A DNA stretch of 64,000 nt from Escherichia coli (GCF_048403405.1 NZ_CP183129.1), one strand, 5' to 3'; shown: positions 40,201 through 46,200, numbered from the stretch's first letter. Numbers: made by a program.

Positions 40201-43200
40201 TTGCCCGCCAGATTGGCGCGGGGATGAGTACCGTCAGAACGGCTATCGCACGGCTGGAAGCAGAAGGCTGGTTAACGCGTAAGGCGCGTCGCCAGGGTAA
40301 CCGCAATGCGTCGAATGTTTATCAGCTTAACGTTGCGAAGCTTCAGGCTGCGGCATTTTCTCAACTGTCAGATTCTGACCCGTCAAAATCTGACGCATCA
40401 AAATCTGACCCGTCAAAATTTGATGCGTCGAAATCTGGCAAAAAAGCGTGTTTTCACCCGTCAGAATCTGGCGGGGATCCGTCAGTAAAATCAAAACATG
40501 ATCCGTCAGATAAAAAACCTTCTCGTCCGGACGCTTTGCAACCGGACACGCAGACGGCTGAACAGGATTTTTTAACTCGCCATCCTGATGCGGTTGTATT
40601 CAGCCCTAAAAAGCGCCAGTGGGGAACGCAGGATGATTTGACCTGCGCACAGTGGCTCTGGAAAAAAATCATCGCCCTGTACGAGCAGGCCGCCGAATGT
40701 GACGGCGAGGTGGTTCGTCCCAAAGAACCGAACTGGACAGCATGGGCAAACGAAATTCGCCTGATGTGTGTGCAGGATGGTCGTACTCACAAACAAATCT
40801 GCGAGATGTACAGCCGCGTCAGCCGTGATCCGTTCTGGTGCCGTAACGTGCTCAGCCCGTCGAAGTTGCGGGAAAAATGGGATGAGCTTTCCCTGCGCTT
40901 ATCGCCGTCCGTCAGCACGCACACAGAAAAACGTGAAGACCCGTACTTCAAAGCCAGTTACGACAACGTGGACTACAGCCAGATCCCGGAAGGATTCAGG
41001 GGGTGATCATGAGTCTTTTGAATGAAGTTCAGAAATTCATTGAAGCCCATCCGGGCTGTACTTCCGGAGACATTGCGGATGCTTTTGCAGGTTACTCACG
41101 GCAGCGCGTACTGCAGTCAGCAAGCAAGTTACGTCAGAGTGGGCGTGTGGCTCACCGTTGTGAAGGGAAAACACGCAGACATTTCCCACACCAGGCTGAG
41201 ATATCGCAGGAGGAGAAACTGCAACCTGTTCTTGAAACCATACCTGTGAGCAATTTCTATGTCGGCACTAACGACCCCTGGGTGATTTTGTGCCTGACCC
41301 GTCAGGCTGAAGAACTGGAGTCCAGGGGCTTATACCGTCGTGCTGCAACGGTGTGGATGGCGGCATTCCGTGAAAGCCACTCCCAGCCAGAACGAAACAA
41401 TTTTCTGGCGCGTCGTGAGCAGTGCTTACAGAAAAGCAGCAAGCGCGCAGCATCGGGTGAAGAGTGGTATCTGTCAGGGAATTACGTGGGGGCTTAATGA
41501 GTAATAAATATTGTCAGGCACTGGTGGAACTGCGGAACAAACCAGCCCATGAACTGAAGGAAGTGGGCGATCAGTGGCGCACGCCGGACAACATTTTCTG
41601 GGGAATTAACACTCTGTTTGGCCCGTTTGTTCTGGATCTGTTTACTGACGGTGATAACGCCAAATGTGCTGCGTATTACACGGCGGAAGACAACGCGCTG
41701 GCGCATGACTGGTCAGAACGTCTTGCGGAGCTTAAAGGTGCTGCCTTTGGTAATCCCCCATACAGCCGCGCCAGTCAGCATGAGGGGCAATACATCACCG
41801 GCATGCGTTACATCATGAAACATGCCAGTGCCATGCGTGATAAGGGCGGGCGCTATGTTTTCCTGATCAAAGCTGCCACCAGCGAAGTGTGGTGGCCGGA
41901 AGATGCGGACCATATTGCTTTTATTCGCGGGCGTATTGGTTTTGAACTGCCTGCCTGGTTTATCCCGAAAGACGAAAAGCAGGTGCCAACAGGTGCTTTC
42001 TTCGCTGGTGCTATTGCTGTTTTCGACAAGACCTGGAAGGGAGCGGCAATCAGCTACATCGGGCGCGATGAACTTGAGGCATGTGGTGAGGCATTTCTGG
42101 CGCAGGTTCGCCAGCAGGCGGAAAAACTGGTCAGGGAGATGGTGGCATGAAGCTAATACTGCCTTTTCCGCCCAGCGTGAACACCTACTGGCGACACCCC
42201 AACAAAGGGGCATTTGCTGGTAAGAGCCTGATAAGCGCGGCGGGGCGAAAATTCCAGAGTGCGGCGTGCACAGCAATAGTTGAGCAGTTACGTCGTCTGC
42301 CGAAACCAACGTCGGCACCTGCTTCAGTGGAGATCGTGTTGTTTCCTCCGGATAACCGGATCCGCGATCTGGACAACTATAACAAGGCGCTGTTTGACGC
42401 CCTGACCCACGCGGGTGTGTGGGAAGACGACAGCCAGGTGAAAAGAATGCTGGTGGAGTGGGGACCAGTTATCCCGGAAGGGAAGGTCGAGATCACTATC
42501 AGTAAGTACGAGAAAACGGCGGGTGCAGCCGCCTGATTAAGAGGAGAAACGAAGTATGAATAATCTGATGGTCATTGATGGTATTGAAGTTCGTCGTGAT
42601 GCTTATGGGCGTTACAGCCTGAACGATCTGCATCGCGCAGCAGTAGCATCTGGTGCAAATGCCAGAACCAAGGAGCCAGGAAAGTTTCTTTCCAGCCAAC
42701 AAACTGTTGAGCTTGTTCATGAATTGACCAACACCCAGAATTTGGGGGTTGACCCGGTGAGTGTGATTCATGGGGGAAATGAACGGGGAACGTATGTCTG
42801 CAAGGAACTGGTGTATGCCTATGCAATGTGGATCAGTCCATCATTCCATCTGAAGGTGATCCGTACTTTTGACATGGTAACCAGCGCACCGGATAAATTA
42901 TCCGGACAGGCTGCTGACAAGATGCAGGCTGGTGTGATTCTGCTGGACTTTATGCGCCGGGAATTAAACCTGTCTAACTCTTCAGTGCTTGGTGCCTGTC
43001 AGAAACTCCAGGAGGCTGTTGGCTTACCGAATCTGGCACCGCGCTATGCCATTGATGCTCCTGCCGATGCACCCGATGGCTCAAGTCGCCCCACGCTGTC
43101 GCTAAGTGCACTGCTGAAACAGTATGGTATCCGCCTGACGGCTAATCAGGCATATCACCAGATGGTGAAGCTGGGGATCGTCGAGCAGCGCGAACGATAC

Positions 43201-46200
43201 AGCCGTACCGCGATTAACAACATCAAAAAATTCTGGTCGCTGACGGCGAAAGGCTGCATGTTCGGCAAGAACATCACCAGTCCTGCAAATCCGCGCGAGA
43301 CGCAGCCGCACTTCTTCGAATCCCGATTCCCTGAGCTGTTAAAGCTGCTCGATACCGTTCATTGAGGTGACCGTGAGAGCACTACTGACCCCTGAAATTG
43401 CCCCGCGTATGGGGATCGTATTGTTCAGACCAGGTTCAGAGCTGATGCCCCTGTTTATGCAGGGGCGTGTCCTGCTGGAGCCTGAGCCGGAACGTTATTC
43501 ATCTTTCGCCAGTGGTGCCGTTCCGGCGGCATCACAACCGCTGGCGGATGATCCTGCCGTTCGGGCCGTGTTCCGCAATGAGGCAGTGATCCGTCGTGCT
43601 GGTGGCGTGGAATGTCTTGAAAGCTGGTTACTTCGTGAAAAAGGCTGCCAGTGGCCTCATTCCGACTGGCACAGCGAGAACATGACCACAATGCGACACG
43701 CTCCGGGTGCAATCCGTCTGTGCTGGCACTGCGATAATCAGCTGCGCGATCAGTTCACGGAACGGCTGGAATCAATGGCAACGGATAACTGTGCCCGCTG
43801 GGTGTTGTCTGTTGTGCGTCGGGATCTCGGTTTTGATGACAGTCACGTTGTGACAATGCCGGAACTGTGCTGGTGGCTGATTCGTAATGATCTGGCGGAT
43901 GCCTTACCGGAAAGTGCAGCCCGTAAGGCACTGAGATTACCGAAGCCTGTTGTGCCGACTGTTACCCGGGAAAGTGACCTTGTGCCTTCGGTTCCTGCCA
44001 CCAGCATCATCCGGGATAAGGCGAAAAAGGTGCTGGCGCTGAAAGTGGATCCGGAGTCGCCGGAGTCTTTTATGTTACGCCCAAAACGTCGCCGCTGGGT
44101 TAATGAAAAGTACACGCGCTGGGTTAAGACACAGCCGTGTGCATGTTGTGGAAAGCCCGCTGATGATCCCCACCACCTGATAGGTCACGGTCAGGGTGGA
44201 ATGGGAACAAAAGCGCATGACCTTTTTGTGTTGCCTTTGTGCAGAAAGCATCACGACGAGCTGCATGCGGATACCGTGGCATTTGAAGAGAAGTATGGTT
44301 CCCAACTGGAGCTGATATTTCGTTTTATCGATCGCGCGCTGGCGATTGGTGTGCTGTCCTGATTTTGTGGAGAAAGTTGATGCGTGATATTCAGATGGTT
44401 CTTGAACGCTGGGGGGCATGGGCGGCAAGTGGTAACACCGGGGTGGACTATTCTCCGATCGCTGCCGGATTCAAAGGACTTTTACCATCTGCCACTAAAC
44501 CACGTCCGGCCTGCTGCGATGATGACGGACTTATCATTGAAAACTGTCTTGCTCGTCTGAAGCAGAAAAAACCTGAGGAGTATTCGCTTCTCATTGCTCA
44601 TTATCTGTTGCGAATATCAAAAAGACAGATAGCCAGGACGAGAAAGAAAAGCGAAAAAGCAATACGAATTGAGATGCAGATAGCCGAAGGGTTTATTGAC
44701 GGATGTTTGTCTGTGCTGGGGGTAAGACTGGAGATGGACGACTGGCTGCTAAAAAAGTAAAAAATGATTAGTGCGGTCCGCAAAAAGTATGTCAGTATGT
44801 TAAGAGTGGTTACTTCGCCACACAGCTTAAACCCGCCGCGAGCGGGTTTTTTATGGCTGAACGTTAAATGCGCTGGTGGTTGTGAATGCCGACTGCGGCG
44901 GTATTTTGGCGTGACGGCGCAGGTGCCGTATACCGATGTCTGGACGCATAAACCGGTACAGTTCTATCCCGGGAAACATCCGTGCGAAAAACCGGCAGAA
45001 ATGCTGCAGCAGATAATCAGCGCTAGCAGTCGTCCGGGTGACCTGATTGCAGATTTTTTCATGGGGTCGGGTTCGACAGTGAAAGCGGCACTGGCGCTCG
45101 GGCGTCGTGCAATTGGCGTTGAGCTGGAGACTGAACGTTTTGAGCAGACGGTTCGGGAAGTACAGGATTTAGTCAGCCAGAACGGATGATATTGAAGAAT
45201 TAATTACGCGTCGTTATTATGCGGCTCCCGGCCCTTTAGCTCAGTGGTGAGAGCGAGCGACTCATAATCGCCAGGTCGCTGGTTCAAATCCAGCAAGGGC
45301 CACCATCACATACCGCCATTAGCTCATCAGGATAGAGCACCAGCCTTCGAAGCTGGTTGCGCGGGGTTCGAGTCCTCGATGGCGGTCCATTATCTGTACC
45401 CTGCGTTGTTAGCTCAACCGGACAGAGCAATTGCCTTCTAAGCAATCGGTCACTGGTTCGAATCCAGTACAACGCGCCAGACTTATTTTTCCCGGCTCGC
45501 TTTTGCGGGCCTTTTTTTTAAATGTCTCACAATTCAGACGGTTGACAGTTGTCTGTTTTGCGGGGAGTTTGTTAAAAGAAACTGGCATGGTGAATCCCCC
45601 TGTGCGGATGGGCAATCAGCGAGTAGGTATATGGGATAATCGCGGATTCAGGTGCTGGTACTGAATTCACCGGGAGGCACCCGGCACCATGCAGTTGACT
45701 GAAACCATGTATACTCTCAGGCCCCACGCACATGTGTTGGGGCCTTTTTACATGCAAAAAAAAGCCCGCATATTGATACGGGCGGCAAGGAACAAAAAAC
45801 GTGAAGTGATCTATTCAGCCAGTGGATAATACCCTGACGTTACCATATTGCGCAATCGCGCATTCTTTCTTTTTCGCTCCCCTTATAACTACGCCATCCG
45901 TTCGCTGCGGAGGTGAGGCTATGAAATCCATGGATAAAATTTCAACGGGCATTGCCTACGGCACCTCCGCAGGCAGTGCTGGCTACTGGTTTTTACAGTG
46001 GCTTGATCAGGTCAGTCCGTCACAGTGGGCTGCGATTGGTGTACTGGGGAGTCTGGTTCTGGGCTTCCTGACATATCTGACTAACCTGTATTTCAAAATC
46101 AGAGAGGACCGTCGTAAGGCTGCACGGGGAGAGTAATTCAATGACTCAAAACTATGAACTGATTGTGAAAGGGATCCGCAATTTTGAGAATAAAGTTACG

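Follow-up and report, generated by a model that had tools for sequence, protein, structure and literature searches.

An intact SfV-type adenine methyltransferase gene and the 3′ stub of an M.EcoGII-type methyltransferase gene in a lambdoid prophage of Escherichia coli

The question raised by a 64,000-nucleotide stretch of Escherichia coli DNA (GCF_048403405.1, NZ_CP183129.1; the whole stretch is called the window here) is how many DNA methyltransferases its lambdoid prophage can make, and of what kind, as two methylase-like segments lie in this prophage, one on each side of the antiterminator gene Q. A reading made from the sequence alone had described an intact N6-adenine methyltransferase with an FGNPPYS motif in the replication/nin region and a separate C-terminal methylase fragment, containing DFFMGSGST, downstream of Q, and our analysis bore out both descriptions. 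The explanation that we consider very probable is that the upstream segment is a delayed-early methylase of the type carried by the Shigella flexneri phage SfV, and that the downstream segment is the dead 3′ end of an M.EcoGII-type methylase gene, left behind by a 1181-bp deletion. From 41400 to 45600, a span of 4.2 kb, the window sequence agrees at 100% with the ECO_2_R chromosome of E. coli (NZ_CP071002.1) and with two other clinical isolates, and the annotation of window features by the Prokaryotic Genome Annotation Pipeline (PGAP) was taken from that identical chromosome. PGAP names 41497-42150 a 'phage N-6-adenine-methyltransferase' and the segment downstream of Q a pseudogene, 'site-specific DNA-methyltransferase, incomplete, missing N-terminus'; both features are thus already annotated, as well as covered by published work, and are ordinary in this respect. 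The upstream gene and its catalytic motif are as follows.

41497-42150, + strand: intact orphan phage N6-adenine DNA methyltransferase gene, SfV dam type, 217 amino acids (PF05869, TIGR01712, PADLOC; PGAP WP_021530864.1)
41746-41766, + strand: catalytic motif IV, FGNPPYS, residues 84-90 (read from the sequence)

The reading frame of this gene runs from the annotated start, ATG 41497, to TGA 42150; a list of open reading frames (ORFs) placed the start at GTG 41464. The 217-residue product matched Pfam PF05869 ('Dam') with E=6.4e-45 and 153 bits (cut-off 28.1) over profile positions 3-167 of 169, and NCBIfam TIGR01712, an equivalog-level model, with 254 bits (cut-off 97) over positions 1-165 of 165, while the PADLOC model for type II methylases, MTase_II, aligned to residues 1-217 of 217. 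In an alignment of the window protein with the SfV, ST64B, VT2-Sakai and T1 enzymes, D25, W27, T29-P30, L46-D47 and N86-S90 (NPPYS) were invariant, so that the full-length matches above curated cut-offs are accompanied by motif IV and by the DxWxTP and LD positions. These results confirm that 41497-42150, in the early-right (nin) operon, encodes an intact N6-adenine methyltransferase of PF05869/TIGR01712 and is essentially SfV dam; that both methylase features of the window are far beyond chance was likewise confirmed. No solved structure matched the protein by sequence.

The closest relatives place the gene in a well-populated group. SfV Dam (AAL89443.1) was 99.1% identical by tblastn, has the same length of 217 amino acids and has the same neighbours, with a PerC-like gene upstream and RusA, KilA-N and DUF968 genes downstream, but in SfV a further small gene, orf42, separates dam from rusA, and this gene is absent from the window. 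Identity was 98.6% to the genes of Stx2c phages and of phage PhiR49_1_star and 70% to ST64B sb44. In contrast, VT2-Sakai orf32 (M.EcoVT2Dam), which likewise lies partner-less in a nin region, was only 28% identical and T1 Dam only 25%; the family motifs are conserved in both, and the window enzyme differs from VT2 Dam by an insertion of about 10 residues after NPPYS and by a longer C-terminus. Two enzymes considered as named REBASE counterparts with a known target were rejected: M.EcoMIV of ST131 belongs to another family, PF02086, and M.EcoGV is an MT-A70 enzyme that acts on rRNA and not a member of PF05869/TIGR01712.

A naming peculiarity touches this family. Among PHROG families, the best match of the Dam-like protein bears the label 'phosphoadenosine phosphosulfate reductase', and the protein aligned to that family's C-terminal portion (positions 283-492 of 495), so that some phages carry fusions of such a reductase with Dam. 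RefSeq gives the same reductase name to ST64B sb44 (297 amino acids; ST64B locus L008, 2501-3394), which in the alignment consisted of the Dam domain and a C-terminal extension of about 80 residues.

The absence of a restriction partner, which had also been claimed from the sequence, was upheld. Neither the PGAP annotation of the whole prophage nor PADLOC, applied to ten neighbouring proteins, showed a restriction endonuclease; in the PADLOC scan the only matches to restriction endonuclease models were weak HNH-domain ones (E about 1e-5), to the packaging HNH protein. The only nuclease-like genes were the terminase-adjacent HNH gene (47576-47926) and the DUF968/HNHc_6 gene (43367-44362), both of which are standard lambdoid components. 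The intact enzyme is thus an orphan (solitary) methyltransferase and not one half of a Type II restriction-modification pair.

The second methylase segment begins 133 nt past the stop codon of Q.

44380-44760, + strand: antiterminator Q gene, marking the start of the late region (PF06530, E=1.6e-52; PGAP WP_001204806.1)
44893-45189, + strand: pseudogene comprising the final 98 codons and the stop codon of a beta-class adenine methyltransferase gene of the M.EcoGI/M.EcoGII family (tblastn, PF01555, PGAP)
45052-45078, + strand: motif I, for binding of S-adenosylmethionine (SAM), DFFMGSGST, with FMGSG at 45058-45072 (sequence and alignment to the full-length enzyme)

The 141-residue ORF that contains this segment matched PF01555 (N6_N4_Mtase) with E=3.3e-24, over profile positions 134-220 of 221 only. 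The remnant shares 96% identity with residues 255-352 of a 352-residue methylase encoded by strain W24, whose own identity to M.EcoGII is 94%; with M.EcoGII residues 255-348 the remnant shares at least 89%. The M.EcoGII sequence came from the machine-read supplement of PMC11551740, and a few of the mismatches are reading errors. M.EcoGI and M.EcoGII are adenine methyltransferases without sequence specificity that E. coli prophages encode (Murray et al. 2018, PMC5778455), and M.EcoGII methylates adenine in any context, is toxic if constitutively expressed and is silent in the lysogen (PMC5778455). The Rossmann fold of M.EcoGII is predicted to comprise residues 1-134 and 260-349, and its target-recognition domain (TRD) residues 160-237 (PMC11551740). 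Compared with these enzymes, the window keeps only the C-terminal 98 residues: the FxGxG motif I and high identity over 95-98 residues were found, as was the usual locus of the family, after Q and a terminator and before the ileZ-argN-argO tRNA genes, but the DPPY motif (motif IV), the TRD (about 160-237) and most of the Rossmann fold are deleted. The remnant therefore cannot be an active enzyme, and we conclude that 44893-45189 is a dead 3′ stub of an M.EcoGII-type methylase and not of a generic 'Dam'.

The origin of the stub was mapped against the Stx2a prophage locus of strain W24 (L002), which served as a proxy for the ancestor. Its backbone is alike, with a PerC-family gene, methylase, RusA, KilA-N and DUF968 genes and an identical Q protein (WP_001204806.1), but between Q and the tRNA genes it carries a 65-codon ORF and the gene for the 352-residue 'DNA-methyltransferase'.

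44300-44891: aligned to W24 locus 5219-5823 (pairwise blastn, 96.7%)
44891-44893: deletion junction, at which 1181 bp of the W24 locus (5824-7004) are absent
44893-45520: aligned to W24 locus 7005-7633 (pairwise blastn, 93.0%)

The 1181-bp deletion took out the 65-codon ORF and methylase codons 1-254, including the DPPY motif and the TRD, with its left breakpoint about 40 nt beyond the terminator that follows Q and its right breakpoint at methylase codon 254/255. The window sequence at the joint reads GTGAATGCCG-A-CTGCGGCGG. With W24 as the proxy ancestor, the joint shows no more than 1-2 nt of shared sequence, which points to an illegitimate deletion and not to an exchange at a mosaic boundary beside Q. 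A slip between the GTGAATA heptamers that lie near both breakpoints was considered and rejected, as the sequence at the junction is not what a simple slip from one copy to the other would give. Stx2 phages match the window DNA from 44893 onward only, and phage PPyecE_EH1910 matches only up to 44861. The suggestion that the remnant marks recombination at a Q-proximal site was thus correct in part: a true remnant does lie beside Q, but the joint is a simple 1181-bp internal deletion relative to an otherwise collinear Stx2a prophage and not a mosaic one. After this deletion no second methyltransferase can be made, and the allele has since been passed on and has spread to more than one phage backbone. 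Between the terminator and the left breakpoint, the window also differs from the W24 prophage by a 13-bp indel and several substitutions at 44867-44880 (W24 locus 5787-5812).

The stub can be compared with the full-length gene, which follows Q, a terminator and a 65-codon ORF in W24, in loci L003 and L004 and in SfV. In related phages (SfV, 1720a-02 and many Stx2 phages) the late operon opens with the full-length methylase, a large gene placed before ileZ-argN-argO. Phage 1720a-02 was named as a carrier of a very similar enzyme in the paper on M.EcoGII (PMC5778455), and its gene, in the same place, proved 98.9% identical to the W24 protein. Compared with the Stx2-phage late region (Q, methylase, ileZ-argN-argO, stx2AB and lysis genes), the window shares the Q allele WP_001204806.1, the tRNA trio and downstream sequence but is without two blocks, the 1181 bp that hold the 5′ part of the methylase gene and an stx2AB block of about 1.33 kb. 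At this second place (window 45520/45523, W24 locus 7633/8966) homology ends shortly after argO and picks up again, at 81%, downstream of stx2B.

The deletion allele is not confined to this chromosome. In 82 of 5426 complete E. coli genomes, matches extended over at least 80% of a 135-bp probe spanning the joint. The methylase gene's 3′ end was present in 1842 of the 5426, at up to six sites in a single genome. The deposited phage genome PhiR49_2 shares Q, the stub and the tRNA genes with the window as one block of 99.5% identity; its replication module differs, and the early region that was fetched contains no annotated methylase. The allele has thus passed from one backbone to another, and its presence does not preclude a complete phage genome. 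Because the lineage that lost the M.EcoGII-type enzyme is widespread and recorded as a phage genome, this enzyme appears to be dispensable. On NZ_CP071002.1, a second place outside the window matched both the stub and the junction probe (two places in the record), and this place may be another prophage with a full-length or differently shortened M.EcoGII-type gene.

VT2-Sakai also carries a methylase stub of this family, of 37 codons (residues 316-352; VT2-Sakai locus L005, 20457-20567), directly upstream of the tRNA genes and unannotated in its record. This truncation is larger than that of the window and, being different, indicates an independent deletion. Short methylase stubs were found in other genomes as well, and PHROGs families of 50- and 181-residue 'methyltransferases' match only this C-terminal region. 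Taken together, the window allele, the VT2-Sakai stub and the further stubs indicate that decay of the M.EcoGII-type gene is recurrent. That loss of the non-specific hypermethylase was adaptive, through selection against a toxic enzyme or against one that draws restriction dependent on N6-methyladenine, with the SfV-type enzyme, possibly of non-GATC specificity, left as the only methylase, seems to us quite unlikely. What the locus records is a phage lineage that lost a hypermodifying enzyme carried by many Stx2 and SfV-like phages, and the significance of this is small beyond correct annotation.

The frame that reads into the stub is open well upstream of it, across a terminator-like hairpin.

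44764-44892, + strand: non-homologous 5′ extension of the 141-residue ORF, 43 codons; not methylase sequence, spanning the post-Q region
44829-44852, + strand: intrinsic terminator-like hairpin of the tR′ type downstream of Q, AAACCCGC-CGCGA-GCGGGTTT, with the 3′ arm ending in six T

The RNA of 44805-44860 folded at -23 kcal/mol (z=-3.6), and none of 200 shuffled sequences folded as well; SfV annotates a rho-independent terminator at the equivalent post-Q place. Direct folding of the RNA was used because a simple consensus terminator scan missed the hairpin, part of the T run being counted in the stem. The ORF (44764-45189) starts at an ATG that sits 4 nt past the Q stop codon. From this ATG the frame runs for only 38 codons in the undeleted relatives W24 and L004, and for only 34 in PhiR49_2, which has the same deletion. 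What decides the in-frame fusion to the stub is the T run at 44847-44852, with six T in the window versus seven in W24, L004 and PhiR49_2. As the fusion frame depends on this run and is absent in the relatives, we conclude that in-frame fusion in the window is accidental, and a conserved fusion is ruled out by the early closure of the frame in both PhiR49_2 and the undeleted relatives.

Two other explanations of the segment downstream of Q deserve weighing. One is that it belongs to a larger intact methylase masked by a frameshift or a sequencing error, a reading for which the open upstream frame, and nothing else, can be cited. When the W24 enzyme was compared by tblastn with all six frames of the 64-kb window, however, only residues 255-352 were found (E=9e-60; next match E=0.76) and no N-terminal half in any frame. 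Moreover, the sequence before 44893 corresponds to the post-Q region in relatives, and the same junction occurs in the 82 independent complete genomes and one phage genome. Frame correction thus yields no larger intact gene, and the probability of this explanation is vanishingly small. The other is that the 141-residue ORF encodes a functional truncated protein, for example a SAM-binding half-domain that poisons dimers of co-resident M.EcoGII-type enzymes. The frame open from just past Q would allow this, beta-class methylases are thought to act as dimers (PMC7544214), and NZ_CP071002.1 has a second locus that matches the remnant query. We nevertheless consider it highly improbable: the frame is unconserved in the relatives described above, its 5′ part crosses the terminator hairpin, PGAP calls the segment a pseudogene, and the product would be without Rossmann residues 1-134, including 97-110 and 116-140 of the predicted dimer interface (PMC11551740).

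Whether the intact enzyme acts in the lysogen or only after induction bears on its role, and here the junctions with its neighbours are informative.

41495-41499, + strand: TAATG overlap between the stop codon of the PerC-family gene and the methylase start (sequence and ORF list)
42147-42150, + strand: ATGA overlap between the methylase stop codon and the rusA start (sequence)

From the Rha-family gene through the replication, PerC-family and methylase genes to the RusA gene, every gene overlaps its successor by 1-4 nt without a break; the PerC-family regulator gene (yfdN-like, 41003-41497), directly 5′ of the methylase gene, shares one base with the methylase start. The order of the early-right operon is cro, Rha-family gene, replication gene, PerC-family gene, methylase, RusA, KilA-N, DUF968 and Q, and about 3.5 kb separate the methylase gene, inside this repressor-controlled operon, from the cro-side promoter region upstream of it. 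A consensus scan of 40900-42300 found no sigma-70-like promoter and no terminator-like site. The SfV GenBank record does annotate -35 and -10 signals for dam about 70-90 bp upstream of the gene, within the preceding gene, but these hexamers are weak (TTGCGC, TACGGA) and the aligned window hexamers are weaker (TGGCGC, TACAGA). From the position in a repressed operon, the gene overlaps and the absence of an own consensus promoter, we infer that the methylase is expressed only after derepression.

The sequence-only reading had further suggested that orphan prophage methylases can alter host methylation, and for the lysogen we did not find this supported. Taken further, the intact Dam-like enzyme would be expressed in the lysogen and would reshape the host methylome, as a molecular vaccine or epigenetic regulator. 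The signals annotated upstream of SfV dam favour such expression, and orphan methylases on mobile elements can change host expression, as with M.EcoGIII as cited in PMC4659465. We judge it very unlikely, however, given the weak SfV promoter with its still weaker counterpart in the window, the lack of a promoter in the scanned interval and the overlap of the gene with both neighbours within the repressed early operon. Two other prophage methylases, of ST131, were reported to be transcriptionally silent in lysogens (PMC4659465), and M.EcoGI and M.EcoGII to be silent there as well (PMC5778455). In addition, if the target is GATC, host Dam already methylates about 98-99.9% of sites (PMC3893438, PMC6602927), so that no new pattern would arise. 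Rather less improbable, though still unlikely, is that the enzyme, though a genuine methyltransferase, does not target GATC in DNA but another short DNA motif or RNA, or has a relaxed specificity. Its identity to characterised GATC enzymes is only 25-28%, and it has the insertion after NPPYS and the longer C-terminus relative to VT2 Dam; relaxed-specificity prophage methylases provide one precedent (PMC7556043) and a predicted phage 'Dam homologue' that acts on 16S rRNA another (PMC10810198). The match to the equivalog-level model TIGR01712, far above its cut-off, speaks for GATC, and the rRNA-acting enzyme comes from a different family, MT-A70. Among Dam-family members of known specificity, the HP1 and T1 enzymes methylate GATC. 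M.EcoVT2Dam of VT-2 is also listed with GATC (PMC6602927). Counts of GATC were uninformative on specificity, with 120 observed versus 134 expected in the prophage and 154 versus 114 in the flanking chromosome.

A delayed-early SfV-type methylase would fit the following scheme. The enzyme would be made only once the prophage repressor is lifted and would then modify replicating phage DNA, most likely at GATC. Phages with Dam-like genes include P1, VT-2, the T-even phages and HP1 (PMC7556043), and host Dam leaves the virion DNA of lambda and P22 under-methylated (PMC8022706). Where host Dam cannot keep pace with phage replication, progeny DNA would in this way be fully modified, which would shield it from methylation-sensitive restriction on entry into the next host. 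Completion of GATC methylation on rapidly replicating phage DNA is thus predicted as the most likely role.

Several points weigh against our overall explanation. The timing of expression was deduced from gene order only, and the SfV record annotates a promoter specific to dam. The GATC target is predicted from relatives of only 25-28% identity, and our literature search found no published experiment on the target of the SfV-type enzyme, a PF05869 member common in E. coli and Shigella prophages. Predictions of substrate for phage methylases can fail, as illustrated by another 'Dam homologue' from Shiga toxin-producing E. coli prophages (M.EcoPA8orf6770P/M.EcoGV, MT-A70), which prefers 16S rRNA when bound to a partner protein (PMC10810198). 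Finally, the end-points of the deletion were set against one modern relative with flanks 93-97% identical and not against the true ancestor.

The surroundings of the two methylase features are those of a prophage integrated beside yecE. In the NZ_CP071002.1 annotation it spans from the yecE side to tail genes; the integrase gene adjoins the DUF72 gene (yecE), yecN and cmoA, and HK97-type head genes and a P27-family terminase gene are also present. On the + strand, PGAP places YmfL-family, DUF4222, Rha-family, helix-turn-helix (HTH) replication and PerC-family genes after the repressor/cro pair and before the phage N-6-adenine-methyltransferase gene. RusA, KilA-N, DUF968 and antiterminator Q genes, the methylase pseudogene and genes for tRNA-Ile, tRNA-Arg and tRNA-Arg follow it. 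Beyond the tRNA genes come holin, lysozyme and spanin-type lysis genes, the HNH gene and the terminase gene. Four 15-bp repeats in tandem (TCTGACCCGTCAAAA-like; 40374-40437) lie inside the gene for the HTH replication protein (40065-41006) and encode a repeated DPSKSDASKS peptide; they look like origin iterons inside an O-like gene, as in lambdoid phages.

45230-45479, + strand: three tRNA genes of the ileZ-argN-argO type (ARAGORN, PGAP), directly 3′ of the remnant and in the same order as in W24, L003 and VT2-Sakai

The first of these tRNA genes (45230-45305) was called Met (anticodon CAT) by ARAGORN versus tRNA-Ile (ileZ) by PGAP and in Stx-phage records, which is the usual ambiguity of lysidine-modified CAU tRNAs. 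Between the stop codon of the stub and this gene lies a promoter-like site (45192-45220; TTGAAG, 17 nt, TATTAT), which could give the tRNA genes a promoter of their own.

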